Notes: generated from the letters alone by a model not told the origin. 45,307 nt of DNA from Bordetella parapertussis (GCA_945893125.1 CAMDDY010000001.1:1-45307); one strand, 5' to 3'. Counted from the first letter of the stretch, positions 20,287 through 36,432 are shown. Numbers and translations: made by a program.

Positions 20287-21573
20287 TTGCTTTTGCCAAC
20301 AGTCGCTGTAATAGGCTTGGGTTACGTAGGGCTGCCGCTTGCAGTTGAATTCGGCAAACACTTTCACACCATTGGCTTCGATATTTCCGTTCAGCGTGTC
20401 GCTGATTGCACTAGCCGCATTGATCCCAATGGCGAAGTGACACGTGCTGATTTTGATGTCGCCGCCAAGCTGCGTGTGACGAACGATGCGCATGCGCTCG
20501 CACAGGCTGATTACATCATCATTGCCGTACCCACACCGGTAGATGCCGCACACCAGCCCGACTTCTCTGCTCTCTTGGCAGCCAGCCGCATTGCGGGCGA
20601 GCATATGAAAAAGGGTGCAGTCATCGTTTATGAATCGACCGTCTATCCCGGTGCTACCGAGGAAATTTGTATACCAGCCCTCGAGCAGCATTCGGGCATG
20701 AAATGGCAAACCGGCTTTCATGTCGGCTATTCACCGGAGCGCGTCAATCCGGGCGACAAAAATCACACGCTAACAAATATCATGAAGGTAGTCGCGGGAG
20801 ACAGTCCGGAGACTTTGCAGAAAGTCGCGCAGCTATACGGCACAGTGGTCAAAGCCGGGATTCATCGTGCAAGCAGCATCATAGTCGCGGAAGCGGCGAA
20901 GGTCATTGAGAACACACAGCGTGATCTCAATATCGCGTTGATGAATGAGCTGGCCATAATATTTAACAGGCTGGGCATCGATACGCTGGAGGTTCTGGAA
21001 GCAGCCGGCACGAAATGGAATTTTCTTCCGTTTCGGCCGGGGCTGGTCGGCGGGCACTGCATCGGAGTTGATCCATATTACCTGACCCACAAGGCAGAAA
21101 AGCTCGGCTATCACCCGGAAGTCATTCTCGCCGGGCGCCGGATCAACGACGCGATGGGACAGTTTGTCGCAGAGCAAACCGTGAAGCACATGGTCCGTGC
21201 CGGCCTGCAAGTCACGGGATCCAAAGTCAGCGTCCTGGGCGTGACGTTCAAGGAAAACTGCCCGGACCTGCGTAACACTAAAGTTATCGATATCGTGCGT
21301 GAGCTAGAGCGTTTCGGCATCCGTGTTCAGGTGCATGATCCGGTCGCATCACCCTCAGACGCGAATCGCGAATACGGAATTGACTTATTGCCGTGGGATG
21401 CGCTACCCAAGGCTCAGGCCCTGATCGTCGCTGTTGCTCACGACCAATTCCTGGCCAGACCCGTGCCTGATTACATTGAAAAACTGGAGGCGGGCGGATG
21501 TTTCGTCGACGTGAAATCGAAGTTCGATTGCAACGAGCTTAAGCGGCGCGGTCTTGCGGTCTGGCGTCTGTAG
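20287..21573 (+). CDS. wbpO: UDP-N-acetyl-D-galactosamine (hexosamine) 6-dehydrogenase, WbpO/TviB type
   Basis: 428 aa. Rossmann motif VIGLGYVGLPLA and catalytic-Cys motif GGHCIGVDP. TTG start, so the N-terminus is uncertain by 2 codons. Confidence 0.8.
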   Translation: MLLPTVAVIGLGYVGLPLAVEFGKHFHTIGFDISVQRVADCTSRIDPNGEVTRADFDVAAKLRVTNDAHALAQADYIIIAVPTPVDAAHQPDFSALLAASRIAGEHMKKGAVIVYESTVYPGATEEICIPALEQHSGMKWQTGFHVGYSPERVNPGDKNHTLTNIMKVVAGDSPETLQKVAQLYGTVVKAGIHRASSIIVAEAAKVIENTQRDLNIALMNELAIIFNRLGIDTLEVLEAAGTKWNFLPFRPGLVGGHCIGVDPYYLTHKAEKLGYHPEVILAGRRINDAMGQFVAEQTVKHMVRAGLQVTGSKVSVLGVTFKENCPDLRNTKVIDIVRELERFGIRVQVHDPVASPSDANREYGIDLLPWDALPKAQALIVAVAHDQFLARPVPDYIEKLEAGGCFVDVKSKFDCNELKRRGLAVWRL

Positions 21574-21586
21574 CTCGTATTGACCT

Positions 21587-22627
21587 ATGCCTGCTGCCAT
21601 CCGTGCGCTCAAGACCCGGCTGCTGAACGAGCGGTACGTCTGGCTGGTGACCGGCGTGGCGGGCTTCATCGGCTCCAATCTGCTCGAAGCGCTGCTCAAA
21701 CTGGATCAGGATGTCATTGGTCTGGATAATTTCGCCACGGGTTATCCGCACAATCTTGAAGAAGTGCGTGAGCAGGTGTCCTCGCAACAATGGCAGCGCT
21801 TCCGCTTCGTGGATGGAGATATTCGCAAGCTTGACGACTGCAGGCACGCAGTTGAGGGCGCGACCTATGTGCTCCATCAGGCTGCGGTCGGCAGCGTACC
21901 CAGGTCGGTCGTGGATCCAATCCTCAGTCACGAAGTCAACAGCGGCGGCTTTCTCAATATCCTCCTAGCGGCGCGCGATGCGAAAATAAAACGCATGGTG
22001 TATGCATCATCGAGCTCGGTCTATGGCGACGAGCCTGCGCTGCCCAAGGTTGAGGATAGAATCGGCGTGCCGCTTTCGCCATACGCCTTGAACAAGCGGA
22101 CGAATGAGGAATACGCCACGATATTTTCCAGGTGCTACGGCTTTCATGCGACGGGGCTGCGCTATTTCAACGTATTCGGGCCGCGCCAAGATCCCGATGG
22201 CGCGTACGCGGCGGTCATTCCAAAATGGATCTCCAGCATGCTCAAGGGCGAGCCGGTCTATATCAACGGCGATGGCGAAACCAGCCGCGATTTCTGCTTC
22301 GTGGCAAACGCGGTGCAGGCCAATTTGCTGGCGGCTACCGTGGAAGATCCCGCAGCCGTGGGCCAAGCCTACAATGTTGCCGTGCAGGAGCGCACGACCC
22401 TTAACCAGCTTTTTGCCCTGGTTCGATCCGAGCTCGCGCCACATTTCCCACGCGTTGCTCAGTTGCAGCCGCTACACCGTGAACTCAGGCAGGGCGATAT
22501 CCGGCATTCGCTGGCCGACATCAGCAAGGCGAAAAAGCTGCTCGGCTACGCCCCCACCGACGGTGTTGTCGAAGGCCTCAAAAAAGCGATGGACTGGTAT
22601 ATTGTCAACGCCGCAAAGCGCGCGTGA
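21587..22627 (+). CDS. wbpP: UDP-GlcNAc/UDP-GalNAc C4-epimerase, WbpP/TviC type
   Basis: 346 aa. From memory it is almost colinear with P. aeruginosa WbpP: [56 protein letters not shown]. Confidence 0.8.
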
Positions 22628-22648: not shown

Positions 22649-23119
22649 TCAGCTAAACCGGATTTGGTTCATGTGCAGCCAGATTGCGAATGAGTCATAG
22701 GGTGTGACGAGCGGCTGCGTAAGAATCTCGGCACCGGTGAACGCTTTGAATTCCGCACCCTCGTGCAGCACAAACCGTGAAAATTCCTGATCCGACACTG
22801 GCACCACAAAATAGATGCGGTAAACCTTTTCCTGTTTCTTCCCCAGCCAGCTGAAATCGAAATCGAAGCGCGTAAATTCCCGTGCCTCGGTAACTTCGAA
22901 TTCAAGTTCTTCATGTAACTCCCGATACAGCGCCTGCAACGGCGCTTCGCCAGCGTTGACTGCGCCGCCGAAGCAGCCCCAATGATCCGGATAAAAAATA
23001 TGCGGAATATCGTCGCGCAGCTGCATAACGTAGTGGCCGTCTGGCATGACCAACAACGCGGCTACCGCGTCGTCGCCACGCAACTTGCCGGGGGCAGCGA
23101 TAAAAGTCGGCAGTGTCAT
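22649..23119 (-). CDS. Nudix hydrolase
   Basis: 156 aa. Nudix box G-AVNAG-E-APLQALY-RE-L-H-EE-LEF. Last gene of the minus-strand block. Confidence 0.8.
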   Translation of the reverse strand: MTLPTFIAAPGKLRGDDAVAALLVMPDGHYVMQLRDDIPHIFYPDHWGCFGGAVNAGEAPLQALYRELHEELEFEVTEAREFTRFDFDFSWLGKKQEKVYRIYFVVPVSDQEFSRFVLHEGAEFKAFTGAEILTQPLVTPYDSFAIWLHMNQIRFS

Positions 23120-23185
23120 GAAAGCGCGTGCGCGAAATGGAAGATTTGCGGTACCCGCGCGTGGCTATGCCAACCAGCGCGGGGA

Positions 23186-24106
23186 TCAGGCCAAGCCGAG
23201 CTTGGCTGAAATGGTCTTGAGATCAAGGCCGTGCGCCGCTTGCAATTCGGTATGGCTGCCATAGTTGTGAATAAACTCGTCCTGCAGAGCAAAGCTGTCG
23301 AGCTGGCATTTGGCACGGGTGTCCCACGCGATTTCTTTGATGCGCGGACCGAGGCCGCCATACGGGGCCATTTCCTCGATCACAATCACGCGTTTATGGC
23401 TGTGTAGCGCCTTGCTCACGCCCTCCACGTCCAACGGCTTTACCGTGTGCGCCGATACCAATGAAACGCTTTCCCCGCGTGCCTCGAATTTGGCGGCCAG
23501 ATCCGATCCGAGTTTGAGGATGGGGCCATAACCGATGATGCAGACATCGGCGCCGCGCTTGATATAACGCAACTTGCCGAATTCAAACGCGTCGATCGCC
23601 TTGGATGTGAGGTCTGGCTCGCCGGCTTTGCCCAAACGCAGATAAACCGGACCGCGTTCCTGTTTGATGCACCATAGCGTCGCCAAGCGCGCTTCGTGCG
23701 GATCGCACGGCGCGATCACTGCCATATTGGGGATCGCGCAGGCAACCGCCACATCCTCCTGCGCGTGATGCGTGCTGCCCAGCGTGGAATAGGTGATGCC
23801 GCCACCGATGCCGACAACTGTTACCGGCAGATTGTGGTAACAGAGATCGTCTCGCACAAACTCGAACGGGCGGAACAGCGTGAACGTCGCGATCGTGTAT
23901 GCAAACGGGCGCAGCCCGCGCAGCGCCATTCCAGCGCACAAACCGATCATAATCTGTTCGGCAACGCCGGTATTGATGAATCGGTCCGGAAACGTCTGCC
24001 GGAATTTGTCCATGGCGCCGGCGGGAGAAATGTCGGCAACCACCACGCACAGGCGCGGATCCTGCTGCCCTGCCTCGAAGAACGTATTGGCAAACATGTT
24101 TCTCAT
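23186..24106 (-). CDS. transketolase-family, C-terminal (pyrimidine-binding) subunit
   Basis: 306 aa. FINTGVAEQ, GSTHHAQEDVA and PVYLRLGK motifs are typical of split transketolase subunit B. Confidence 0.9.
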   Translation of the reverse strand: MRNMFANTFFEAGQQDPRLCVVVADISPAGAMDKFRQTFPDRFINTGVAEQIMIGLCAGMALRGLRPFAYTIATFTLFRPFEFVRDDLCYHNLPVTVVGIGGGITYSTLGSTHHAQEDVAVACAIPNMAVIAPCDPHEARLATLWCIKQERGPVYLRLGKAGEPDLTSKAIDAFEFGKLRYIKRGADVCIIGYGPILKLGSDLAAKFEARGESVSLVSAHTVKPLDVEGVSKALHSHKRVIVIEEMAPYGGLGPRIKEIAWDTRAKCQLDSFALQDEFIHNYGSHTELQAAHGLDLKTISAKLGLA

Positions 24107-24948
24107 GACGCCACCTCGGCCAACTCAGCCAACGCCTTCTGATACTCGTCTTTGTTCGGAGAACGATAGTGCCAGATCGGCACATGCTCCATGTACGACA
24201 CGCCCTTGCCTTTCACCGTTTTACCGACCACCATGAACGGTCGCTCGCCACTGCGTGTCGCCACCGCGCTGAATACTTCCGCTGCGTCGTGACCATTGAC
24301 CTCGACGGCTTCCCACCCGAAAGCCCGTGCCTTGTCCAACACGGGGTAAAAGTGCGGATGGGTTTCCGACGTGCGCCCCAGCCCCTGAAAATCATTCAGG
24401 TCGAGAAAAGCGACGAGATTATTCAGGCCGAGATTGGCGACCATCATCATTGCTTCCCACGTCGATCCTTCCTGCAGTTCGCCATCCGACAGCACTACAA
24501 AAACCTGCCGGTCGGTTTTTTTTATTTTTTCTGCATAGGCCATGCCCGCCGAGATCCCCATGCCATGGCCGAGCGAACCGGTGGATGCCTCGATCCCGGG
24601 CACCCCATAATCCGGGTGCGCACCAAGCTTGCCGAGCGGCGTGCAATACCGGTCAAGATCGTTCTTGGTGAGAATGCCAAAGTCCTCAAGAATCACGTAC
24701 TGCGAAAGGCAGCCGTGCCCCTTGGACATCACAAAACTGTCCTGCGTGCCGTTGCCCGAATGATCGCGGCGCATCAGCCCGTTGTAAATAACGTCGACCA
24801 TCTCCAGACAGGAAAACGCAGGCGCCACATGCAGCGCCGTCACCTGCTGCGAGATATCAAGGATGCGCCGCCGGTAGCGCAAGCAACGCTGGCGAGCGGC
24901 GACCGCATCAAAGTTCTCGCTACGCTGAACTCCCATGGTCCGCTGCAT
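24103..24948 (-). CDS. transketolase-family, N-terminal (ThDP-binding) subunit
   Basis: STGSLGHGMG and LSDGELQEGSTWEA (ThDP/Mg motif). Start set at ATG 24948, sharing 1 nt with the stop of the upstream SDR. ATGA overlap with subunit B. Alternative starts at 24978 and 24936. Confidence 0.85.
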   Translation of the reverse strand: MQRTMGVQRSENFDAVAARQRCLRYRRRILDISQQVTALHVAPAFSCLEMVDVIYNGLMRRDHSGNGTQDSFVMSKGHGCLSQYVILEDFGILTKNDLDRYCTPLGKLGAHPDYGVPGIEASTGSLGHGMGISAGMAYAEKIKKTDRQVFVVLSDGELQEGSTWEAMMMVANLGLNNLVAFLDLNDFQGLGRTSETHPHFYPVLDKARAFGWEAVEVNGHDAAEVFSAVATRSGERPFMVVGKTVKGKGVSYMEHVPIWHYRSPNKDEYQKALAELAEVAS

Positions 24949-25937
24949 TACGCGCGCAGCACGTAGTCCATCGGCCAATCACGTAACTGGTCGAGGTACT
25001 TGCGCGCCCAGGATGCCATTTCCTCCAAGCCATCTTCCCAGCCAATTTGCGGTTCCCAGCCAACGTCGCGCTTGATCGCACTCGAATCCAGCCAGTAACG
25101 CGAATCCTGACCGAGCCGGTCACCCGTCATCTCGCACAATTGATCGAATGGCATTTTCAGCGCCGCTGCGCACAGTTCCACCACGCGCTTAATCGAAGTC
25201 GGATCTTTGGGCCCCGCGTTGTAGACTGTCCCGAGCGGTGCTTTTTCATCAACCAGATGAATCGCACGTGCAAGATCCCGCGCGTGGATGTACGATTTTT
25301 CGGCACGGCCGCCGCCGTGCAAAGGCAGCCGCTTGCCAAGGAGTCCGCATACCAAGGTTTTCGGAATCACGCGGTGCAGCAACTGGCCCGGGCAGTAGGC
25401 GTTCGACGGTCGAATAATATTCATCGGGAATTTCAGGACCTTTGAAATCGACAACAAATGCATGTCGAATGCCGCTTTGGACGCCGCATATGGACTGGTG
25501 GGCTGCATCGGCGTATCTTCCTTCGCCGCAAAATCAACCGAGCCGTAAAGTTCGGAGGTCCCGATTTGAATAAAGCGCTCCATGTAGTCGCGCGACATCA
25601 ACTCTTCTGAAAACTTGGCAAGCGCCATTGAGTTTGTTTCGAAAAACCGCCAGGATTTTTTCCACGATACCGCACCTTCACCTTGCGCGGCATAATTGAT
25701 AATGACCTGCGGTTTCTCCTTGTCGAGCAACTCCATTACCGAGTCAAGTTCATGCGTAAGATGGAACGCATGGTACTGGTAATTTTTCCGCTTTTCGACA
25801 TTAAGCGAGAAAGGCTCTGGCCGCAACGGATTGCGGCCGACGCCAATGACCTTCTTGGGATCGGCATTGTCAAGCAGATACAGCGCGGTGTGGATCCCAA
25901 ACGATCCGCCAGCCCCGAAAATGGCGTAAGTTTTCAT
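24948..25937 (-). CDS. extended SDR, NDP-sugar 4,6-dehydratase-like
   Basis: 329 aa. Rossmann motif IFGAGGSFG, GTSELYG, and YAASKAAFD (YxxxK). Confidence 0.8.
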   Translation of the reverse strand: MKTYAIFGAGGSFGIHTALYLLDNADPKKVIGVGRNPLRPEPFSLNVEKRKNYQYHAFHLTHELDSVMELLDKEKPQVIINYAAQGEGAVSWKKSWRFFETNSMALAKFSEELMSRDYMERFIQIGTSELYGSVDFAAKEDTPMQPTSPYAASKAAFDMHLLSISKVLKFPMNIIRPSNAYCPGQLLHRVIPKTLVCGLLGKRLPLHGGGRAEKSYIHARDLARAIHLVDEKAPLGTVYNAGPKDPTSIKRVVELCAAALKMPFDQLCEMTGDRLGQDSRYWLDSSAIKRDVGWEPQIGWEDGLEEMASWARKYLDQLRDWPMDYVLRA

Positions 25938-25984
25938 TGAATTTTCGCTGCCTCTCCCTGAATTAAGGGCGCAAGTTTAATTAC

Positions 25985-26641
25985 TTATTCTAGTATCGTC
26001 CAGTACCAGTCGCCCGTGTAACCGGCTTCTTTAAATAGTTTGTTCCAACCATCCGGATAGTCGTGAAACTTGGCAGTCAACACCCACGACAAAAACAGCT
26101 CCCGCTGGGCTGGCGTTCGATACGAATCGACCTGAATGAAGCCACGGCCCGGCGCGAGACGCTCTACCTCTCGCACCGCACGTATTGCATCGTGACGCTC
26201 GAAGTTATGTATGGTATTGAGGGAGATCACTGCACTGAAGCTGTTGTCCGGAAATGGAAGTTTATCGCCACTGCCCAGATGCAGTCGCCCGACCACCTCC
26301 GGCTCGCAATGCATAAGCGCATATTCCGAGATATCCAGGCCGAATACTTCGAGTCCGGGACAGACTTTCAACAAATCCTTCACCAGGAACCCCTTGGCGC
26401 ATCCGACATCGAGCACGCGATCGCCGGGCTTGAGGCTGAAGTGCTTGATGATATCTTCGGCGATAGGTATCCAGCGTCCGTCGTAGCGATAACCGCCATA
26501 GCCGACCTCGCGCGGACCGTCGAAATACTGCTCTCCATATTGACGCGAAATTGCGATGTTCTCGGGTGTCTGCGCTTCCTTGCGCTTTTCAATATTGCGC
26601 TTGGACTTCGGCAACCGCGCCAGCAAATTGATTTCTGCCAT
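25985..26641 (-). CDS. class I SAM-dependent methyltransferase
   Basis: Trimmed to MAEINLL... at 26641, which shares 1 nt with the upstream stop. Motif I is RVLDVGCAKG. Confidence 0.8.
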   Translation of the reverse strand: MAEINLLARLPKSKRNIEKRKEAQTPENIAISRQYGEQYFDGPREVGYGGYRYDGRWIPIAEDIIKHFSLKPGDRVLDVGCAKGFLVKDLLKVCPGLEVFGLDISEYALMHCEPEVVGRLHLGSGDKLPFPDNSFSAVISLNTIHNFERHDAIRAVREVERLAPGRGFIQVDSYRTPAQRELFLSWVLTAKFHDYPDGWNKLFKEAGYTGDWYWTILE

Positions 26642-27528
26642 CAGATCTTCTCCTCGGATAACTTCATTGCCAGCGCCAGTCCCTCTTCCAGCGGCGTAAA
26701 CCGGAACGCGGGAAAAGCCTGGCGACATGCAGTGATATCGAAAAAGCGATGCACTAGGTGCGGGCGCGGTACGGTGCGCGGGTTCTCCTGGACCTTGACC
26801 TTGTTCCCGAACTGCGCCGCAATGATGTGAGCGATTCGGTTAAAAGATGTCGCCACCCCGGTTGCGGCATTGAGCGCGCCGCGGCTGCGGTGAAACAGCA
26901 TCAAACGCGCAATCTCTGCCAAATCATCCACGCTGATGTGATCGCGCTGCTCTTCACCCTCGCCGAACAGCGAAATCGCCTCGCCGCGCTGCGTCTGCCG
27001 CCGAAAACGATTCGGTCCGTAACCGTTATGCGGATCACCTGCACCGTAGATCAGTGTCGGGCGCAGCATGGCAGTCGGTGCCGTTACGGTGGTTTTGAGC
27101 ATCAACTCGCGTGCCGCGTGCATCATGCCGTGCAGCGTCGAGGGCGCACAGCAGGATTCTTCGGTGACGGGATTCGCATCATCGGCGTAGACAGCATCCG
27201 AGCTGATATAGAGCAAATGATGGATTGGCACCGCGGCGAGCGCCTCGCATACGGCCTCTGCCATCCGCAGGTTCTGCATCAGCATCGCAACGTTCTTGGC
27301 CGGTGCGATGGCCGACACCATGACAACGCTGTCATCCGGCCTTAACATGGATTTCAATTTCACTGCGGCGTCCACCGCCATCAGGTCGATTTGCCTGCGC
27401 GTCAACGCAAGTGTTTTGACATCGCATGCCAAGAGACACCGGTTGATAGCACCGCCCACAAAGCCGCCAGCTCCGATTACGATTACGCGTGATGGCTTGA
27501 CTGGCGCTGCGTTGAAATGTTCGAGCAT
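26641..27528 (-). CDS. atypical extended SDR (NAD-dependent epimerase/dehydratase fold, HxxxH instead of YxxxK)
   Basis: 295 aa. Rossmann motif VIGAGGFVGG and ISSDAVY. The expected P-x-x-x-Y-G-x-x-K segment reads PSTLHGMMHAARE. Confidence 0.75.
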   Translation of the reverse strand: MLEHFNAAPVKPSRVIVIGAGGFVGGAINRCLLACDVKTLALTRRQIDLMAVDAAVKLKSMLRPDDSVVMVSAIAPAKNVAMLMQNLRMAEAVCEALAAVPIHHLLYISSDAVYADDANPVTEESCCAPSTLHGMMHAARELMLKTTVTAPTAMLRPTLIYGAGDPHNGYGPNRFRRQTQRGEAISLFGEGEEQRDHISVDDLAEIARLMLFHRSRGALNAATGVATSFNRIAHIIAAQFGNKVKVQENPRTVPRPHLVHRFFDITACRQAFPAFRFTPLEEGLALAMKLSEEKI

Positions 27529-27543
27529 GGTTATCGTTACCCA

Positions 27544-28827
27544 TTATGCGCCGTGCAGGCACGGCTTGCCTAACGTAAAGTATTCGAGCCCCGCTTCTTT
27601 GACACTTGCCTCGTCGAGCACGCGGTAAGGATCAATAATCGCTTTTCCCGCCAATCGGCTCCTAAGATCGGTCGGCTTCAGCTCGCGGAATGCCGGCCAC
27701 GGCGTCATGATCGCAATCACGTCGGCACCGTTCGCCGCATCCAGCGCCGACTCGAAACCGGCACAATTCGGGTGATCGACCACGTTCGCCAGCACCAACG
27801 GATCGAACACTCGCAACCGCCATGGCTTAAGGTGCGCGATCAACGCCAGCGACGGCGAATTCTTGGTCGAGTGGGTGTTTTCCTTGTACGCAAGGCCCAG
27901 CACGGCAATGACGGCATCCGGCTTGCGTGCGATGACTGCAGCATGCAACGTGCGCAATACCCAATGACGGCGGTGCCGGCTATTGCGCACGAAGGCCTGC
28001 ACCAGGCCCGCTTCTGTGCCGGTTTCCTGGCTCAACTGCAATACGGTCGCGAGGTCGCGCTCGAGGTTGCCGCCCGCCAAGCCGAGGCCGGGCGCGAGGT
28101 ATGCAAATTGACCGATACGGCGATCGAGCTTCAAGGCCGGCGCGATCTCGCTCCAGTCGGCGCCTATCCGTTCGCTGAGTTCCGCCAGCGTGTTTGCCAC
28201 GGTGACCGAAGCCACCAAGCAGCAGTTGATTGAAATTTTTGCAAGTTCGGCGCTTTCATACCGCATCGGCAGGAGGGGGCACGCGAACGCGGACAGAAAA
28301 GCGTTGTAATGCCTGGGCAGGGGCTGCATCGGATCGGCGCAACCCACGATAATGCGTTCTGGATGCATCGCGCGATCAAACGCACGGCCGAAAATCAGCG
28401 TCTCGACCTGATAATAAAGCCGTGCGCAATCGAACGTGAGGCTGCGCGTGAACCCGGGTGGGGCCTGGCACAGAATGACAAGCGTTGCCGCAGGCGCCAG
28501 TGCTGCCGCAACCGCGCCGATCAATGCCCTGATGCCGGCGAGATTGCTCTGCCCGCAGTCATCGGTCGGCACGTCGGCTGCGATGTATACCACGTCGCAG
28601 CGTGCAAGGTCGCGCTGATCGGCGGAATATCGGATGCGCCCAGCGTGCTGCCAAAGCATTTCCGGCAGATCCGGCTCGACCACGGGCAGGTCGCCCGCCG
28701 TGAGACGCGCAATGAGCGCTGAATCCGTATCGAAGCACACCGTATCAAAACCGCGTGCTGCACAAGCCGCTGCGGAATTGATGCCAAGATGCGTCATTCC
28801 TGCAAAGCCGACTACACTGCCGCTCAT
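27544..28827 (-). CDS. UDP-glucose/GDP-mannose dehydrogenase family protein lacking the catalytic cysteine
   Basis: Trimmed to MSGSVVGFAGMTHLG at 28827, giving an ATGA overlap with the upstream gene. Three-domain UGDH-like layout (VLGLAYKENT). The active-site motif reads GLGLAGGNLERD where the family has GxGxGGxC(L/F)PKD. Confidence 0.8.
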   Translation of the reverse strand: MSGSVVGFAGMTHLGINSAAACAARGFDTVCFDTDSALIARLTAGDLPVVEPDLPEMLWQHAGRIRYSADQRDLARCDVVYIAADVPTDDCGQSNLAGIRALIGAVAAALAPAATLVILCQAPPGFTRSLTFDCARLYYQVETLIFGRAFDRAMHPERIIVGCADPMQPLPRHYNAFLSAFACPLLPMRYESAELAKISINCCLVASVTVANTLAELSERIGADWSEIAPALKLDRRIGQFAYLAPGLGLAGGNLERDLATVLQLSQETGTEAGLVQAFVRNSRHRRHWVLRTLHAAVIARKPDAVIAVLGLAYKENTHSTKNSPSLALIAHLKPWRLRVFDPLVLANVVDHPNCAGFESALDAANGADVIAIMTPWPAFRELKPTDLRSRLAGKAIIDPYRVLDEASVKEAGLEYFTLGKPCLHGA

Positions 28828-29756
28828 GACTGCACCTGTTGCAATGCTGCTGCACCGAGCTCGCGTAACTGCCGGTTGAGCCACAAGTCATCGGCAAGAT
28901 CGGTGGCAACGCCGCGCTTGCACAGCGCCTTGAAGTACGCATATTCGATTTCCCACGTGGGATCGTCCTGCGCAAGCGTCACCGATTCTTCGGGCGGTCG
29001 CCCGCTCGGCAACAGGCGCGTGCGCAGCGTGAAAGTGCTGGGCCCCCACTTGCACAACGAACGGATATGCGCGCTGCCACGCTCGGCGAACACATCGCAA
29101 GTGAAGTGATTGCGCCATGAGAGCAGCGTCATTTCCAGTTCTAGTTTCGGCGCCGACGTGTTCGACCCAATCACCACATGGTCCGGTGCGCGGTTTTCGA
29201 AGCAATTGACCGAAACAATTTCTAATTTCCCGCCCACATCGCCGAACCAGAACTTCGCGGTATCCAGCAGGTGCGAGCCGAGATCAGGCAGCACGCCCGC
29301 ACCCTGATCTCGCCACTGCGAGTCACGCACCAAGCGCGCCGTACCGTTGCCGTAAAACATCCGGCAACGATATATCTTCCCAAGCCGGCCCGACGCCACG
29401 AGTTCGCGCATGCGCACGAAATGCGGCTCGAAGCGGTGGTTGTATGCGGTGTAGCAGACGGCCTTGTTGGCGCGGGCGATCCGCTGCAGGCGCTCGATAT
29501 CTTCATCCTGCGCGGCCCACAGCGGCTTTTCCACCAGCACGTGCTTGCCGTGACCCAGCAGATAGGACAGAACTTCTATTTTCGGTTCGTCGGGTATGCA
29601 GGCAAGCGCTGCATCATAGCTATCCAGCGGCACATCCTCGATTTTTCGGTATTCAGCCTGGGTGTTGAGCGGATCCACCGCTGCGACAAAATCCGCGCCC
29701 GCGAATTTCCGGCGCTTGTGTCCCTGTACTCCGAGGCCCACGACGATGACGCGCAT
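28824..29756 (-). CDS. Gfo/Idh/MocA family oxidoreductase
   Basis: Trimmed to MRVIVVGLGVQG at 29756. VLVEKP motif present. Confidence 0.8.
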   Translation of the reverse strand: MRVIVVGLGVQGHKRRKFAGADFVAAVDPLNTQAEYRKIEDVPLDSYDAALACIPDEPKIEVLSYLLGHGKHVLVEKPLWAAQDEDIERLQRIARANKAVCYTAYNHRFEPHFVRMRELVASGRLGKIYRCRMFYGNGTARLVRDSQWRDQGAGVLPDLGSHLLDTAKFWFGDVGGKLEIVSVNCFENRAPDHVVIGSNTSAPKLELEMTLLSWRNHFTCDVFAERGSAHIRSLCKWGPSTFTLRTRLLPSGRPPEESVTLAQDDPTWEIEYAYFKALCKRGVATDLADDLWLNRQLRELGAAALQQVQS

Positions 29757-29772
29757 AATGCGACCGTTGATG

Positions 29773-31329
29773 CTAACTGTAATTTGCCTGGCGCTCGACC
29801 GTGTCGATTTTTCGACGGACATCCTCCGGCGTTACCGGAATATTACCGTCGTATTCGCACGCACAGGCCGCAGCAATCGAGCCGAGTATGGTTGCGACCG
29901 TGTCCGACCCGGTCGCTAGCTTGGACAACGTCGCGTAAGCGAGCAAAGCATCGCCCGCACCAACCGCATCGACAACGTGCTCGACAAAACTGTCCAACAC
30001 GCCGAAGGAATCCAGGGAACTGTGATCGCTGCTGCGGCACGTCAGCACGCCACGTTCGCCAAGCTTGAGAATGAGGGTCTTGCATTTAGCGGCATCATAG
30101 AGCGCCGAAGCGAGCGGTCGTATACCCGAGTCCTGATCGCCGAGCGCAAATCTCGCTTCACGCTCATTGGGTGTGATCAGATCGAAACCCTTGAAGTCGG
30201 TGATGTTGCCCCAGCGGCTCGCTACCTGGCTGTCAGCCACTTTGTAGATACCAGCAGGGATGGCTGATATCAGGTGCGGGATCGTACGGCGGTTGTAAAT
30301 GCCATGCCGAAAATCGCTGAACACCACCGCGTCAGTCGCGGTTTCCCGCACGCCTTGGCATAACGTCGCCAACACATCATCGGAAATCGAGCGGTTGTCG
30401 AGTGTGTCGATTTTCAGCAATCGATACCCTCCCGCAACGATAGCGTTCTTGTGGGTCGTCGGCCGCGTCGAATCGATTATCGGACGACACACCACGCCCG
30501 ACTTCGCAAGGCCACTCAGCACGAAATCCTTAAATTTGTCGTCGCCAAGAACGGTCGAAAAAACAACCTCCGCGCCGGCGGCGCGCAGATGCTCGGCAAC
30601 GATTGCCGCGCCACCGATGTAGTCGTCACGCCCCTCGTAGAGCACACTCATGGTCGGCGTCTTGGTCTGCCCACCTATCATCGCGGTCCGCGTATAGCTG
30701 TCGACTATGGTGTCGCCGACCACATGCACACGCTTGCCTTTGAGCTTGTCGAGCGCTTCGCGGAGCGAGGTGAACGTGAGTTTTTCCGAATCCATGAAGG
30801 TGAGGAGTTTCTCGAGCTTGATCGCCGGCGGTGCAAGTTCGATCAGCTTGCTCGATGAGTAAACGATATCCCCCGGCGTAAATAGCAGTTCCCCGCCATA
30901 AGAATGCAGAATCTGCGACTCTTCCTGCGTTTTGGCAGCTACGCCGTTGGACGTGTATTCGTAGCCTTTCGCGAAATAGTCAGGCTGGATGCGGGATATG
31001 TTTTTGAGCGGAGTCGCATCCGTGTCGATGAGAACATAATCGACCAGTTCGAACGCCGCAAGGTTGAGTGCGCGTAGATCCTGCGGCACATGAGGGCGAT
31101 GCTGGCCCTTGGTGATATGAGCGTCGGCGGTGATGCTGGTAACAAGGATATCGGCTTTGCTCTTGGCGTAGATCAGGTGGCGCAGGTGGCCAGGATGCAC
31201 CACATCGAACACGCCGTGGCACATAATCACTTTTTTCTCGCGCGGTCGCGTCCCGACCGCCTTGATCAATTCATCGACCGTCTTGATCTTGTGCCGGTAC
31301 TTTTCGGTCAGCGAAGCGAGTGTGCTCAT
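29773..31329 (-). CDS. bifunctional nucleotidyltransferase (N-terminal, cytidylyltransferase-like) / PfkB sugar kinase (C-terminal); domain-permuted HldE-like
   Basis: 518 aa. The N-terminal domain has HGVFDVVHPGHLRHL (HxGH). The C-terminal domain has VVGDTIVDSY...VDAVGAGDALLA (PfkB signatures). Confidence 0.85.
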   Translation of the reverse strand: MSTLASLTEKYRHKIKTVDELIKAVGTRPREKKVIMCHGVFDVVHPGHLRHLIYAKSKADILVTSITADAHITKGQHRPHVPQDLRALNLAAFELVDYVLIDTDATPLKNISRIQPDYFAKGYEYTSNGVAAKTQEESQILHSYGGELLFTPGDIVYSSSKLIELAPPAIKLEKLLTFMDSEKLTFTSLREALDKLKGKRVHVVGDTIVDSYTRTAMIGGQTKTPTMSVLYEGRDDYIGGAAIVAEHLRAAGAEVVFSTVLGDDKFKDFVLSGLAKSGVVCRPIIDSTRPTTHKNAIVAGGYRLLKIDTLDNRSISDDVLATLCQGVRETATDAVVFSDFRHGIYNRRTIPHLISAIPAGIYKVADSQVASRWGNITDFKGFDLITPNEREARFALGDQDSGIRPLASALYDAAKCKTLILKLGERGVLTCRSSDHSSLDSFGVLDSFVEHVVDAVGAGDALLAYATLSKLATGSDTVATILGSIAAACACEYDGNIPVTPEDVRRKIDTVERQANYS

Positions 31330-32327
31330 GGTCGATTTCCGAGGTATTCAAACCAAGTCTTAGTTGCGACCGAGATCGACTTGGGATCCCATAGCGGGGC
31401 ATCGCGCCAAACATCAATCTCCTGCATCATCATGGCGACGCCCTTTTCGAACGGCACTTGCGGCCGCCATCCCAAGTCCTTCTGGATCTTTTTGACGTCG
31501 GCCCAAGTGCAGTCCGGCTCGCCCGGGCGCTTGGGAATATATTCCTTCTCGCCACCAAGAAGGTCCACCAGCCGGTTCACCGACTGCGGGTTTCCCGCCC
31601 CCAAATTCCAGATCTCGCCCGTCTTGGCGGATTCCGCCGCAAGACGGAATGCCTCCGCAACATCAGTCACATACAGGAAATCCCGCGTCTGCGAGCCGTC
31701 GCCGACTACCGTGAACGACCGGCCGGCGAGCTTCTGCCGGAAAAACACGCCGAATACCGCGCCGTATGCGCCGGTCGTTCGCACGCGCGTCCCGTAAGCG
31801 TTGAATATCCGGACCGAATTCACCGGCAACCGGTAGACCTTGTGCCAGTGGAAGCAGGCAACCTCGCCCATCCATTTCGACAAGGCATACGGATAGTGCG
31901 GCTCGATCGGATGATCTTCGCGCGTGGGTGTCGCAGCCAGTCCGTAACAGGAGGAGGATGCCGCATAGACCAGTTTTCGCACTTTAGCGTCGCGCGCGCA
32001 TTCGAGCACCTTGACCGTACCCTGCACGTTCGCCGACATGTATTCGGCGGGATGCTCGATCGACGGCACGATATCGCCTATCCCGGCAAAATGAAAAACA
32101 TGACGCACGTCCCGAAACAGCGCGTCACCCGGCTCGAGATCGCGCACATCGCGCTTTTCAAGAGAGAAATCCGGATTGGCCGCTTGGTGCGCGACATTGC
32201 TCTCGCGGCCGCTGACGAAATTATCAACAGCCCTGACCCTGTATCCCTGGCCGAGCAGGTTGTCGACCATGTGACTGCCGATAAACCCCGCACCGCCGGT
32301 GACTACGGCGATGGGCTTGACTGTCAT
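31326..32327 (-). CDS. extended SDR, NDP-sugar epimerase/decarboxylase-like
   Basis: 333 aa. [11 protein letters not shown] and YPYALSKWMGE. ATGA overlaps on both sides. Confidence 0.85.
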   Translation of the reverse strand: MTVKPIAVVTGGAGFIGSHMVDNLLGQGYRVRAVDNFVSGRESNVAHQAANPDFSLEKRDVRDLEPGDALFRDVRHVFHFAGIGDIVPSIEHPAEYMSANVQGTVKVLECARDAKVRKLVYAASSSCYGLAATPTREDHPIEPHYPYALSKWMGEVACFHWHKVYRLPVNSVRIFNAYGTRVRTTGAYGAVFGVFFRQKLAGRSFTVVGDGSQTRDFLYVTDVAEAFRLAAESAKTGEIWNLGAGNPQSVNRLVDLLGGEKEYIPKRPGEPDCTWADVKKIQKDLGWRPQVPFEKGVAMMMQEIDVWRDAPLWDPKSISVATKTWFEYLGNRP

Positions 32328-33319
32328 TGAACGCCCAGCCTCTTCATGCGCTTGACGTTGTAATAAATATCGTCCGTCATGCTGTCCGGGAGCTTGCCGG
32401 CTTTGAATGCCTTACACAGATCGCGCACGGCATCCTCGATAGTATGCTTGGGCTTGAATCCGATCACACGGGCGATTTTGTCCGAATTGATGTGATAGGA
32501 GCGAATGTCGTCGCTGGGTGTGGTCACGAGTTCGATATCACCCTTCTCGGGATATTCTTCTTTTACTACTTTGCGAACCGCCTTCGCGATATCCATGATG
32601 CTCAGGTTCTGGTAACCGGCATTGAACGTCTGCCCTGCGATTTTCTCCGCCGGCAACTCGATCAGCAGTTGATACAGATCACACATGTCCTGGATATGCA
32701 GGTTGGGGCGTAACTGGCCACCGCCAAAAACCGTGATCTTATTGTTATTGACCGCGTGATTGGTGAGAATATTGACCGACAAATCCATGCGTGTGCGCGG
32801 GCTATAGCCGCACACTGTCGCTGGACGTATCGTAACGCACGTGAAGTCGGGTCCCTGATGCTTCCATAGCAGCGGCTCGCACATGCCCTTGTATTTGTTA
32901 TAGAGCGACACCGGCACCAGCGGATGATCCTCCGTCACGTCGGGTTTGTCGGAAACGCCATACACCGAGCTTGACGAGCAATAGACAAAGCGCTTGACTC
33001 CCGCTTTCTTGGCCGCAATAACCATCGGCTCGAATGCGTCCATATTGACACTGGTAGACAGCTTTTCGTCGAGCTCGAAACTCGCGTCGTTCGAAACGCA
33101 TGCAAGCGACAGCATGACATCAATGCCCTTGAACATGTCCGCATACTTGGCAATCTCGCGGATGTCCCCCGTGACGAGCTTCAGATTCTGGTGCTTCGGC
33201 AAGTGATTACCGTAAAGATAGGTGTCAAAAACGGTGACGTTGTAACCGGCGTTCAGCAGTTGCGGCGTGAGAACGCAACCCACATAGCCGGCACCGCCCG
33301 TGATGAGGACGTTTTTCAT
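32324..33319 (-). CDS. extended SDR, NDP-sugar epimerase/dehydratase family
   Basis: 331 aa. ITGGAGYVGC, SSSSVYG and LYNKYKGMCE (YxxxK). Confidence 0.85.
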   Translation of the reverse strand: MKNVLITGGAGYVGCVLTPQLLNAGYNVTVFDTYLYGNHLPKHQNLKLVTGDIREIAKYADMFKGIDVMLSLACVSNDASFELDEKLSTSVNMDAFEPMVIAAKKAGVKRFVYCSSSSVYGVSDKPDVTEDHPLVPVSLYNKYKGMCEPLLWKHQGPDFTCVTIRPATVCGYSPRTRMDLSVNILTNHAVNNNKITVFGGGQLRPNLHIQDMCDLYQLLIELPAEKIAGQTFNAGYQNLSIMDIAKAVRKVVKEEYPEKGDIELVTTPSDDIRSYHINSDKIARVIGFKPKHTIEDAVRDLCKAFKAGKLPDSMTDDIYYNVKRMKRLGVQ

Positions 33320-33349
33320 ATTAGCCTGTAGTTAAGTGAAAAGAATCAT

Positions 33350-34105
33350 TCAACCGGCGGCGCGGCGCGCTGCCGCAGGTGCTTCGCCGGCAATCGTGAA
33401 ACCGGCGGCGACCGCGTCGCGGCGAAACATCTCGACGGTTTCGAGCGAATAGTCGTCGAGGTTCTTGCCGACCAGATTAAGCTTGGCCAGCACGTCGTTG
33501 GTTACCGTGATGATGTGGCAGCCGATCGCATCCGCCTGAAAGATATTGAGCAGTTCACGCGGACTGGCCCAGATCAATTCAGCCTTGGGTTTCGACTTCA
33601 TAATCCTGACCGCTTGCGCCATCAACGGCACCGGGTCTACGCCGGTGTCGGCGACGCGGCCCGCGAAAACCGAAATGATCGCCGGAGTTCCCGGCACGAG
33701 GCAATCAGTCACCTGCTGAACCTGATCGAGCGTCATGATCGCGGTGACATTCACGGCAACACCGGCCTTGGACAACTCGCGAATCAACCGACCTGAAAAT
33801 TCACGCCGGGTATTAGTCACCGGAATTTTGACATTAACATTCTTACCCCAAGACGCAATCACCTTCGCCTGGCGCTCCATTTCGTCGAACTCGTCAGCAA
33901 ACACTTCCAGAGACACAGGCCGATCAGGCACTGCAGCCAACAGCTTGCGTGCGAACGCTTCGTATTCTGCGATCCCCACCTTACGCATCAACGTCGGATT
34001 CGTAGTGAATCCCTTGATCAACGGATTCGCGTACATTTTCATGATCCCGTCGAAATCGGCGCCGTCGGCGAAAATTTTGACGCGCAACTTATCGATGGAT
34101 GTCAT
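33350..34105 (-). CDS. transaldolase / fructose-6-phosphate aldolase family protein
   Basis: 251 aa. GFTTNPTL and the Schiff-base lysine context NVNVKIPVT. Confidence 0.85.
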   Translation of the reverse strand: MTSIDKLRVKIFADGADFDGIMKMYANPLIKGFTTNPTLMRKVGIAEYEAFARKLLAAVPDRPVSLEVFADEFDEMERQAKVIASWGKNVNVKIPVTNTRREFSGRLIRELSKAGVAVNVTAIMTLDQVQQVTDCLVPGTPAIISVFAGRVADTGVDPVPLMAQAVRIMKSKPKAELIWASPRELLNIFQADAIGCHIITVTNDVLAKLNLVGKNLDDYSLETVEMFRRDAVAAGFTIAGEAPAAARRAAG

Positions 34106-34125
34106 TGCGAATTTTTCCCCTGGAT

Positions 34126-34677
34126 TTAAACTAACGATAGAATCGAGCGTGTGGCGAAACCAAGCGTACGCGCATAATTATTAGGTATAGCCAACCGCAA
34201 CTCTCTATAGCCGCGATCGATGAAGAAAGTATAACATCCAACCGCTTGCCCAGCAACGATATCCCCCCACCGGTCACCCACCATGAAGCTCCGGGCAAGG
34301 TCGATATCCCACTCCTTGGCGGCCTCGACCAATAGCCCCGGTTTCGGCTTGCGGCACTCACATCCCTCGTTCTGCCGGTGAGGACACACCTTGATATCGT
34401 CTACCGGCAAACGATTCATGAGCTTGTCGTGCATAGCTTCAACGACGTTAACGTCGACGAGGCCGTTGCCAATATCCGGTTGATTGGTCACGACAATCAC
34501 CAGCAACCCTGCGTGTTTAAGGGACTGCACTGCGGGAATCACCCCGGGAAGCAGACGAAAATCCTCGACGCGGCGCGGCGCATAAGGTTTGCCATCGCGC
34601 ACTTCGCAGCGGTTGATTACGCCGTCGCGGTCGAGAAAAACCGCGCGGTGCTTACTGACAATTCGGGACTCCGGCAC
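34126..34677 (-). CDS. gmhB: HAD-IIIA sugar bisphosphate phosphatase (D,D-heptose 1,7-bisphosphate phosphatase-like)
   Basis: 183 aa. FLDRDGVIN nucleophile motif and GmhB-type Zn/Cys motif CPHRQNEGCECRKPKPG. Confidence 0.8.
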   Translation of the reverse strand: MPESRIVSKHRAVFLDRDGVINRCEVRDGKPYAPRRVEDFRLLPGVIPAVQSLKHAGLLVIVVTNQPDIGNGLVDVNVVEAMHDKLMNRLPVDDIKVCPHRQNEGCECRKPKPGLLVEAAKEWDIDLARSFMVGDRWGDIVAGQAVGCYTFFIDRGYRELRLAIPNNYARTLGFATRSILSLV

Positions 34678-34716
34678 GTTTGCGCAGGCGCGATGTAATA
34701 GATGACAAGCAACCGC

Positions 34717-35478
34717 CTAAGGCGGCGTAGTCTGGGTATTCATCCGGTGATACTCTTTTGCCACATCGGCTGTGCTGCCGGTGGCAATGATCCGGCCATG
34801 ATCCATCAGCACCGCCTTGTTGCACATCACATTGATCAAGGCATCGGAATGCGATGCGAGAACCAGTATGCTCGATCGCTCGATCAGCGCATCAATGCGT
34901 TTCTTTACGCGTTCCTGAAACCGTGCATCCCCGGCACCCAAGCCTTCGTCCAGCAACAGAATTTCCGGATTGATTGCGGTTGCAATCGCGAACCCAAGCC
35001 GCGTTAGCATTCCTGTGGAATAGGTACGCACGGGCAGCGAAAGATACTCGCCGAGTTCGGTAAACTCCTCGATTTCCGGAGTCTTGAGCCGGATCTCCTC
35101 GCGGGTCATGCCGAGATAGAGACCGCAAGTCAGGATGTTCTCGTAACCGGTATCGTCCATGCTAAGTCCAGGGGCCGTATTAAGCAATGGCGAAAGTCGG
35201 CCCTCGGTAATGACGCGGCCTGACAGAGGTTCGTACACGCCCGCCAGCACACGCAACAAAGTGGATTTGCCGGCGCCATTGTGGCCGATGAACCCGATGC
35301 GATCTCCGTGCGCGATCGTCAGAGAAATATCGTCCAGCGAGCGCACTGTCACCCGATCACTTTTCTTGCCTTCCCGCCTTATGAGACCACCCGCCCGTGA
35401 CAATAAAGCGGTGCGAAAGCTATGGTGCCCGTAGATCGGGAAATCGACCGTGACGTGCTCAAGAATAATGGATGCCAA
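34717..35478 (-). CDS. wzt: polysaccharide ABC exporter ATP-binding protein (NBD only, 253 aa)
   Basis: Walker A GHNGAGKST, signature YSTGM, Walker B ILLLDE. I place the start at TTG 35478, 7 nt downstream of GAGGAGGA. The 389-aa track ORF extends out of frame into wzm. Confidence 0.8.
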   Translation of the reverse strand: MASIILEHVTVDFPIYGHHSFRTALLSRAGGLIRREGKKSDRVTVRSLDDISLTIAHGDRIGFIGHNGAGKSTLLRVLAGVYEPLSGRVITEGRLSPLLNTAPGLSMDDTGYENILTCGLYLGMTREEIRLKTPEIEEFTELGEYLSLPVRTYSTGMLTRLGFAIATAINPEILLLDEGLGAGDARFQERVKKRIDALIERSSILVLASHSDALINVMCNKAVLMDHGRIIATGSTADVAKEYHRMNTQTTPP

Positions 35479-35498
35479 CTCGAAATCCTCCTCGTCCG

Positions 35499-36296: not shown

Positions 36297-36432
36297 CTTG
36301 ATCGTATCCAGAAAAGCCTGCAAAAATAATTGTGGTGGCTAGGGCCGCTTCCCGGCATTTCGGTGTTCGCTGTATTAAATTTTCCGTTCGTCCGCGCCCA
36401 CCACCGCAATATGCCCCCAGACAGCATACCTG

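Follow-up and report, generated by a model that had tools for sequence, protein, structure and literature searches.

Background

To our knowledge, branching of cell-surface sugars by thiamine diphosphate (ThDP)-dependent enzymes is established for YerE-type enzymes only. Three superfamilies, namely the transketolases, alpha-KADH2 and the YerE-type enzymes, are known or proposed to branch keto sugars, and the transketolase as a sugar-branching enzyme is a proposal only, made for two Streptomyces antibiotics (PMC12247030). Our literature searches found nothing relevant on transketolases encoded in clusters for O-antigen, heptose or octose, or on a split transketolase associated with a polysaccharide. 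Here we describe a split transketolase encoded by two adjacent genes in a 45,307-nucleotide stretch of Bordetella parapertussis DNA (GCA_945893125.1 CAMDDY010000001.1:1-45307; hereafter the window, meaning this whole stretch), where it lies near the end of a surface-glycan operon, directly after a gene for a 4,6-dehydratase-like short-chain dehydrogenase/reductase (SDR). We hold it moderately probable that the pair transfers a two-carbon (C2) ketol unit onto a nucleoside diphosphate (NDP)-keto sugar.

Several described systems bear on this locus. In Escherichia coli transketolase, S385, D469 and R520 are positions that have been engineered for non-natural acceptors, with D469T giving a hydrophobic surface and S385 and R520 forming the active-site entrance, and the use of pyruvate as donor requires H100L (PMC10787763); Dxs carries Phe at the His100 position (PMC7661550). 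In Bradyrhizobium, gdh mutants of strain ORS285 are without the bradyrhizose O-antigen (PMC4743980), and the published list for strain ORS278 contains BRADO5164 (kinase/cytidylyltransferase), 5165 (nucleotidyltransferase), 5167 (phosphoheptose isomerase), 5168 (dTDP-glucose 4,6-dehydratase) and 5173 (aminoglycoside phosphotransferase (APH) family; PMC3899966). A transketolase goes unmentioned in these published gdh-cluster papers (PMC4743980, PMC3899966), and the papers found that mention bradyrhizose leave its enzymology untreated. Bradyrhizose itself is a ten-carbon bicyclic sugar whose aldehyde can close on OH-4, OH-5 or OH-9 (PMC9912281), from which it follows that C4 carries a bond to C9 and is a tertiary carbinol. 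In Coxiella burnetii, the region cbu0674-cbu0683 encodes a phosphoheptose isomerase (CBU0674), an epimerase (CBU0676) and an SDR (CBU0677; PMC5843353), together with CBU0678, a reversed-domain HldE-like protein that is essential for phase I lipopolysaccharide (LPS; PMC5843353, PMC13552124).

Architecture of the split transketolase

The element under study consists of three genes.

24948-25937, minus strand: extended SDR, 4,6-dehydratase-like, 329 amino acids (aa), PF16363/PF01370 (SDR329)
24103-24948, minus strand: transketolase N-subunit (TKN), PP domain, 281 aa from ATG 24948, PF00456 at 7e-29
23186-24106, minus strand: transketolase C-subunit (TKC), Pyr and TK-C domains, 306 aa, PF02779 at 1.5e-31 and PF02780 at 2e-17

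An earlier note on this DNA had given the coordinates of the three genes, the single nucleotide shared by the SDR and the N-subunit and the overlap of the two subunits, all of which are exact on the minus strand. The stop codon TAA of SDR329 (24950-24948) and the ATG of the N-subunit have base 24948 in common (GCGCGCG TAATG CAG), and the N-subunit stop and the C-subunit start share a 4-nt ATGA overlap within GCGTCATGAGA. The longest open reading frame of the N-subunit begins at TTG 24978, but the homologues, of 278-283 aa and aligned at 96-100% coverage, support ATG 24948 as its probable start. The Pfam assignments and the ATGA overlap show separate N (PP) and C (Pyr and TK-C) chains on adjacent genes, which is the split architecture of the Carboxydothermus hydrogenoformans transketolase (ChTK). 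The chains of this enzyme are also the best matches among solved structures (PDB 6yak for the N-subunit, 1.5e-46; 6yaj for the C-subunit, 3e-46), followed by human transketolase in the case of the N-subunit and by Dxs in that of the C-subunit.

Upon examining the N-subunit motifs, we find both TALHVAPAFS and SDGELQEG as the earlier note quoted them. The departure from SGHxGGxLS that it described is partial, since the glycines are lost but the His and Ser of the motif are retained, with the His aligning with E. coli His26. SDG is the usual form in the split-transketolase family, GDG is also seen (loci L021 and L024; L numbers are our own locus designations), and the metal-binding Asp and Asn are invariant.

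Separation from the housekeeping transketolase

A full-length tkt is present elsewhere in the genome, in a 674-aa frame on contig C167 that matches PF00456 at 8.5e-158, and a second, longer transaldolase is found on contig C468, the assembly comprising 614 contigs and being 84% complete. The pair is therefore not the housekeeping enzyme, and the possibility raised in the earlier note that it might be the only transketolase of the genome falls away. The NCBIfam transketolase equivalogs match the pair only below their cut-offs (207.8 versus 488 bits). Phylogenetic placement against TktA, Dxs and PDH-E1, which the earlier note had in mind for both subunits, was run for the C-subunit: in a maximum-likelihood tree, the C-subunits of the conserved gene cassette described below form a supported clade (98/88) within a large group of remodelled split transketolases, separate from the TktA of E. 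coli and of the same genome, from Dxs and from E1-beta.

Active-site residues

We mapped 38 concatenated family members onto E. coli K-12 TktA, whose numbering is used throughout. The catalytic residues H26, H66, H100, H261 and H473 and the cofactor-site residues D155, N185, E160 and E411 are kept in all 38 of them. In the window, His40, His78, His111 and His260 of the N-subunit correspond to H26, H66, H100 and H261, Asp155, Asn185 and Glu160 are kept, and the C-subunit retains Arg2 (R358), Glu50 (E411) and His113 (H473); the pair has the ThDP/Mg2+ ligands and the catalytic histidines of a housekeeping transketolase.

The acceptor site is not of the housekeeping type. D469 is replaced by Leu in 38/38 members, H461 by Gly and R520 by Lys in 37/38 each, F434 by Ile and S385 by Ala, and the corresponding residues of the window C-subunit are Leu109, Gly101, Lys160, Ile72 and Ala29. 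The phosphate clamp Arg358/Ser385/His461/Arg520 retains only Arg358, and Asp469, which reads the 2-hydroxyl, is lost. The kept His100 and His473 point to a hydroxylated C2 donor unit, and the remodelled pocket points to an acceptor other than a 2-hydroxy aldose phosphate.

Two of these positions were also followed beyond the mapped members. When the C-subunit was searched against a library comprising 1.84 billion cluster representatives, 13,840 relatives were found at E <= 1e-3, of which 1,323 were at E <= 1e-30. Gly occupies the His461 position in almost all of the 116 full-length sequences among the best 150 relatives, and the Asp469 position is occupied by Leu in 62, by Ala in 14 and by Asp in only a handful. 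Separately, two relatives, P0151 (658 aa) and P0248 (571 aa), are about twice the normal C-subunit length, with the query matching only their first ~250-306 residues, and may be fusions with another domain.

Distribution and cassette synteny

In a scan of one genome per species we found 47 loci with close relatives of the transketolase, at 49-84% identity. The carriers are beta-, alpha- and gamma-proteobacteria (including metagenome-assembled genomes of Coxiellaceae), Nitrospirales and Verrucomicrobia, and the cultured ones are Azospirillum sp. B2RO_4 (on a plasmid), Azospirillum sp. TSO22-1 and Skermanella stibiiresistens. The adjacency SDR-TKN-TKC occurs in about 30 loci across alpha-, beta- and gamma-proteobacteria, Nitrospirales and Verrucomicrobia, and is more than chance.

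The transketolase stands at the tail of a cassette of about 12 genes, in the order SIS-GmhB-Tal-SDR-SDR-NT/kinase-GFO-UGDH-like-SDR-MT-SDR329-TKN-TKC-NUDIX (Tal, transaldolase; NT, nucleotidyltransferase; GFO, Gfo/Idh/MocA oxidoreductase; MT, methyltransferase). This cassette is collinear in about 30 transketolase-seeded loci with enough flanking sequence, with protein identities of 45-86%, and the gene after TKC is usually a NUDIX or a DegT gene. Of 401 Rhizobiales genomes sampled, 11 carry the transketolase. Within the window's own order, 9 of another 400 genomes have the cassette, representing 8 of the 166 other genera sampled; it was found in neither of the two same-genus genomes examined. 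The earlier note judged either of its two readings unusual for an O-antigen locus; the arrangement is by these counts recurrent and not rare. It is nonetheless patchily distributed, and protein identities of 60-85% reach other classes and phyla, a pattern that suggests horizontal movement of the whole 22649-37020 block.

In two of the loci (L077:4316-6367; also L078), a 2.2-kb insert separates the methyltransferase gene from that of the atypical SDR. Its genes code for a TylF-like methyltransferase and for a flavoprotein resembling UDP-galactopyranose mutase, a hint that the product takes a furanose form.

Replacement of the transketolase by other ThDP enzymes

We also sought cassettes independently of the transketolase, through the reversed HldE-like nucleotidyltransferase-kinase fusion. 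Among the 401 Rhizobiales genomes, 14 have a close orthologue of this fusion, with the transketolase in 10 cases, a contig edge in 2 and an E1 enzyme in 2. In the last two (L107 and L108), PDH-E1 alpha (PF00676) and beta (PF02779 and PF02780) stand in the transketolase's place, and L108 has in addition a short-chain dehydrogenase and a 598-aa YerE/acetolactate-synthase-like ThDP enzyme. These E1-type replacement regions span L107:14268-17237 (minus strand) and L108:14258-19110.

The nine cassettes of the window's own order divide into two with the transketolase, two with E1 alpha/beta, two with a YerE-like enzyme, two that are truncated and one without a ThDP enzyme. The latter, L140, has SDR329 and a NUDIX gene followed by glycosyltransferases. 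In Coxiellaceae, of five loci with flanking sequence, two have the transketolase, one the transketolase together with E1 (L152), one E1 and one no ThDP enzyme within 8 kb. Overall, the slot is held by E1 alpha/beta in L107, L108, L141, L144 and L148 and by a YerE-like enzyme in L108, L143 and L147. The front and middle of the cassette, the transaldolase included, are constant, and variation is confined to the transketolase slot at the tail. The occupants of this slot come from the three superfamilies known or proposed to branch keto sugars (PMC12247030), and by these family assignments they would be functionally equivalent to the known branching classes. A late tailoring step on an activated sugar is favoured over precursor supply, because E1 and YerE-like enzymes cannot supply ketose phosphates and because the cassette also exists without a ThDP enzyme.

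The adjacent dehydratase-like SDR

The best NCBIfam match of SDR329 is dTDP-glucose 4,6-dehydratase (TIGR01181, 2e-47), which lies under the model's cut-off. Upon alignment with E. coli RmlB and Gmd, we identify a GAGGSFG Rossmann motif, GTSELYG and YAASK. The Thr-Ser-Glu of GTSELYG is the form of GDP-mannose 4,6-dehydratase (Gmd), whereas RmlB has Thr-Asp-Glu. From these motifs, SDR329 could plausibly oxidise C4, with or without dehydration, and it probably makes the keto-sugar acceptor. The putative ThDP carboligase lies in a nucleotide-sugar tailoring cluster next to this possible keto-sugar maker, as indicated by the 1-nt overlap with SDR329, by the Thr-Ser-Glu and YxxxK of the latter and by the conserved synteny. 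In most loci, orthologues of SDR329 at 65-86% identity lie directly upstream of the transketolase.

Where SDR329 is missing, other genes can take this position. A 296-aa protein without a Pfam match occupies the place before the transketolase at L016:5208-6098 and L022:9085-9975, and at L014:7451-9966 an RmlD-like SDR and a 504-aa protein without a Pfam match precede it.

Link to the Bradyrhizobium gdh cluster

The ORS285 gdh primers (with up to 5 mismatches) and their translated peptides had no match in the first 56 loci or in nine Rhizobiales cassette loci, and a scan of the 401 Rhizobiales genomes with the forward primer gave one match at chance level, control sequences matching equally often. 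The link to Bradyrhizobium was reached through looser matches of the kinase fusion, at 30-35% identity (L104, L105, L106, L114 and L116). In L104, L114 and L116, an SDR329 homologue (31-36% identity) lies directly before TKN (38-39%) and TKC (41-44%). L105 and L106 have the transketolase pair (37-41%), and no SDR329 homologue was seen upstream of it. The SDR gene of L116 holds the ORS285 gdh primer sites 381 bp apart, with 23 of 24 bases matching the reverse primer and 18 of 23 the forward one, and the translated primers occur in its protein (LLPYKW, DMSLRTYF).

The gene order of L104 is NT-PfkB fusion, NTP transferase, SDR, SIS, 4,6-dehydratase-like SDR, TKN, TKC, zinc alcohol dehydrogenase (Zn-ADH), a gene of unknown function, APH-family kinase and methyltransferase, and it fits the BRADO5164-5168 list of ORS278. 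The Bradyrhizobium-type transketolases carry the same Gly/Leu/Lys/Ile signature. The gdh homologues of the Bradyrhizobium-type clusters (L104:13321-14316; L116:10669-11661) read YAVSR in place of YxxxK, a Lys to Arg change, and TTPEVYG in place of Thr-Asp/Ser-Glu.

As to bradyrhizose, addition of a C2 ketol unit to a C4 keto group would make its C4-C9 bond, and the carbon count would then follow as seven from a heptose, two from the ketol unit and one from a C-methyl group, giving ten.

The operon around the pair

The minus-strand operon spans from about 45044 down to 22649, and begins, before the SIS isomerase, with a DegT aminotransferase, methyltransferases and a radical-SAM/SPASM enzyme. 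The remaining genes are as follows.

36433-37020, minus strand: SIS/GmhA-like isomerase, GmhA family match
34717-36323, minus strand: Wzt and Wzm ABC exporter, Wzt/Wzm family matches
34126-34677, minus strand: GmhB-like phosphatase, GmhB family match
33350-34105, minus strand: transaldolase, TIGR02134
32324-33319 and 31326-32327, minus strand: two SDRs (Pfam, NCBIfam)
29773-31329, minus strand: nucleotidyltransferase-PfkB kinase fusion in reversed HldE order (Pfam, NCBIfam)
28824-29822, minus strand: Gfo/Idh/MocA oxidoreductase (Pfam, NCBIfam)
27544-28884, minus strand: UGDH-like protein (Pfam, NCBIfam), which is Cys-less
26641-27528, minus strand: atypical SDR (Pfam, NCBIfam)
25985-26728, minus strand: class I SAM methyltransferase (MT247), PF08241/PF13649
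22649-23119, minus strand: NUDIX hydrolase, 156 aa, the last gene of the operon, PF00293 at 3.7e-11

The transaldolase proposed in the earlier note is real, scoring 350.9 bits against a TIGR02134 cut-off of 281.95. The block 26641-33319 is the constant middle of the cassette, and its order is kept in nearly all related loci. MT247 is conserved in synteny directly upstream of SDR329 or of the transketolase, and a homologue at 41-42% identity lies also within the Bradyrhizobium-type cluster. NUDIX orthologues come after the transketolase or the SDR in many loci, and the enzyme probably serves NDP-sugar hydrolysis and the housekeeping of the sugar-nucleotide pool. The operon ends about 22 nt from the end of a convergent plus-strand TviB/TviC-like pair (20287-22627), leaving no visible room for separate terminators.

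Proposed reaction and its alternatives

The two genes would form an alpha2-beta2 ThDP enzyme with the transketolase fold, which would retain the formation and transfer of the two-carbon ketol (dihydroxyethyl-ThDP) and would have lost the ordinary pocket for 2-hydroxy aldose phosphates. Upstream, the isomerase, the kinase/nucleotidyltransferase and the phosphatase would build a nucleotide-activated sugar of the heptose or octose type. The transketolase would act late, placing the C2 unit on a carbonyl of this NDP-sugar, for which the likeliest target would be a C4 keto group formed by the overlapping 4,6-dehydratase-like SDR. The donor, proposed to be hydroxylated on account of the two retained histidines, might be hydroxypyruvate or a ketose phosphate. 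Transfer would yield a sugar with a hydroxyacetyl branch and a tertiary alcohol, to be finished by the adjacent methyltransferase and reductases and exported by Wzm/Wzt within a polymer. Here we infer the acceptor, the donor, the attacked position and the product of the transketolase. Of the two readings in the earlier note, the one in which a C2 unit is transferred to an NDP-keto sugar supplied by the neighbouring SDR, after the logic of YerE and AviB, is the better supported, on account of the separate housekeeping tkt, the remodelled acceptor site and the slot shared with E1 and YerE-like enzymes; the acceptor may, as this reading has it, be the product of this SDR. As a tentative extension, to which we give only a minor chance, a C2 ketol unit might be added to the C4 keto group of a heptose or octose in NDP-activated form, and the new arm might then close on the sugar's own tail in an aldol reaction. 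The result would be a sugar with a fused carbocycle, like bradyrhizose, or one whose carbon skeleton is extended in another way.

Several observations weigh against ketol transfer onto a keto sugar of the neighbouring SDR. SDR329 is absent from the transketolase-keeping cassettes L014-16, L022, L034, L039, L044, L072, L146 and L151, so the keto or aldehyde acceptor may come from another enzyme or lie at another carbon; the tie between the transketolase and the adjacent SDR, as claimed in the earlier note, holds for the usual upstream neighbour but is not obligatory. Arg358 is kept and position 520 is still basic, and thus a phosphate or diphosphate is probably still bound, which fits an NDP group, a sugar phosphate being also possible. 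The cassette has a transaldolase of its own. The Bradyrhizobium-type cluster is only 31-44% identical and is without the transaldolase, the UGDH-like/GFO pair and the atypical SDR; the window cassette is a relative and not a member of it, and its product is not simply transferable. Furthermore, the function predicted for the clade is based on genomic evidence, and the part that split transketolases would play in making miharamycin and amipurimycin is likewise a proposal (PMC12247030).

Among the alternatives, the one that survives best, although we regard it as unlikely, is that the C2 ketol unit is added to a terminal aldehyde of an NDP-sugar, for example one from the UGDH-like/GFO pair, extending the chain from C7 to C9 or from C8 to C10 with a terminal ketose tail. 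Aldehydes are the natural targets of transketolases, window-type cassettes constantly have the UGDH-like/GFO pair but do not always have SDR329, and loss of the 2-hydroxyl reader through D469L fits an aldehyde whose alpha-carbon is a ring carbon; bradyrhizose might equally be drawn with its C7-C8 bond coming from the transketolase (from the structure in PMC9912281). However, the Bradyrhizobium-type clusters have neither a UGDH-like nor a GFO gene near transketolases of the same signature, the E1 alpha/beta and YerE-like enzymes that replace the pair are known for ketone acceptors, and the direct translational coupling is with the 4,6-dehydratase-like SDR. The Cys-less UGDH-like protein, considered as the maker of the extended aldehyde, was demoted to this alternative because the Bradyrhizobium-type clusters share the transketolase signature without a UGDH-like gene.

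The other reading of the earlier note, a private supply line in which the pair and the transaldolase make sedoheptulose-7-phosphate or octulose-8-phosphate for the SIS isomerase, the kinase and the phosphatase, appears to us improbable. It accords with the TIGR02134 transaldolase being part of the cassette, with Arg358 and with the Lys at position 520, and plant transketolases are reported to make octulose phosphate (PMC4892735). It is countered by the housekeeping tkt and tal of the genome, by the family-wide replacement of three of the four phosphate-clamp residues and of the 2-hydroxyl reader, and by the position of the genes at the tailoring end of the operon, away from the isomerase, the phosphatase and the transaldolase. 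The slot can be held by PDH-E1 or YerE-like enzymes, for which no ketose phosphate is possible, or be empty while the transaldolase stays, and the Bradyrhizobium-type clusters have the transketolase with no transaldolase. The presence of the transaldolase thus stands from this reading, and the supply role is disfavoured by the residues and by the slot replacement.

We regard as very unlikely a different ThDP reaction, either the reverse reaction, in which an NDP-ketose would lose a ketol side chain, or the provision of a glycolyl or hydroxyethyl unit for a carrier. Split transketolases of the QncN/QncL type deliver a C2 unit to a carrier in quinocarcin and naphthyridinomycin biosynthesis, and the catalytic residues of the window pair would allow donor cleavage. 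The cassette has no acyl-carrier, lipoyl or acyltransferase partner, making a long sugar merely to shorten it would be uneconomical, and the carboligases that replace the pair point to bond formation. Finally, that the pair is catalytically dead or purely structural can hardly be credited, as its departures from the GDG and SGHxGG motifs are set against invariant cofactor ligands and catalytic histidines and against relatives that are 60-90% identical across classes.

Implications

Returning to ketol transfer onto an NDP-keto sugar, the analysis defines a large natural clade whose acceptor pocket is altered where protein engineers mutate, anchors it in a conserved glycan cassette and links it by sequence to its only genetically studied relative, the Bradyrhizobium gdh operon. 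It makes two questions testable, namely the source of the extra carbons of bradyrhizose and the product of the conserved cassette. If the tentative extension by aldol closure is true, such higher-carbon sugars, so far described from photosynthetic Bradyrhizobium alone, would also be products of a few percent of proteobacteria and of other phyla, and the sugar skeleton would differ between the transketolase, E1 and YerE-like versions of the cassette. Natural transketolases that may take ketones or bulky acceptors would additionally be of interest for biocatalysis.

Comparison with known systems

The closest enzyme of known structure, ChTK (PMC7661550), has the same two-chain architecture, cofactor ligands and catalytic histidines as the window pair. 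It differs at the acceptor site, where positions 461, 469, 385 and 520 are still His, Asp, Ser and Arg in ChTK but Gly, Leu, Ala and Lys in the window enzyme; the corresponding segments read ATHAG, GEDGASHQ and RLGRSG in ChTK versus GIGGG, STLGSTHH and RLGKAG in the window. Unlike the window pair, ChTK lies outside any sugar-nucleotide operon. The engineered E. coli transketolase 3M (S385Y/D469T/R520Q) has the same three acceptor positions altered and keeps its hydroxypyruvate-type donor chemistry (PMC10787763); it is a laboratory variant for aromatic aldehydes, whereas the window enzyme has Ala, Leu and Lys at these positions and H461G in addition.

The split transketolases of miharamycin and amipurimycin biosynthesis in Streptomyces, compared by description only, resemble the window pair in the reaction proposed for them, by which a keto sugar receives a C2 ketol and becomes a tertiary alcohol (PMC12247030). 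They belong to actinomycete secondary metabolism, whereas the window pair belongs to a proteobacterial Wzm/Wzt surface-glycan locus. YerE (yersiniose) and the alpha-KADH2/PDH-E1-like pairs (aldgarose, kibdelomycin KbDH and avilamycin-type) likewise carry out ThDP-dependent C2 transfer onto NDP-3- or NDP-4-keto sugars, and YerE-like and E1-like enzymes occupy the same cassette slot in relatives of the window. YerE and alpha-KADH2 are of other ThDP superfamilies and use pyruvate or a 2-oxo acid as donor, transferring an acetyl or hydroxyethyl unit; the window enzyme, unlike these, keeps His100 and His473, which bind the donor hydroxyls in transketolases.

At the level of gene clusters, the window resembles the eleven-gene Bradyrhizobium gdh cluster (ORS285 BRAO285v1_100023) in having a dehydratase-like SDR followed by TKN and TKC with the Gly/Leu/Lys signature, as well as a reversed HldE-like fusion, a SIS isomerase, a class I methyltransferase and a nearby Wzm/Wzt pair, and the Bradyrhizobium-type cluster has an NTP transferase, a Zn-ADH and an APH-family kinase in excess of the window. 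The C. burnetii LPS region parallels the front and middle of the cassette, by published gene order alone, and environmental Coxiellaceae carry the cassette with the transketolase, E1 or both. The published order suggests that a copy of the cassette lies in the phase I LPS region of C. burnetii.

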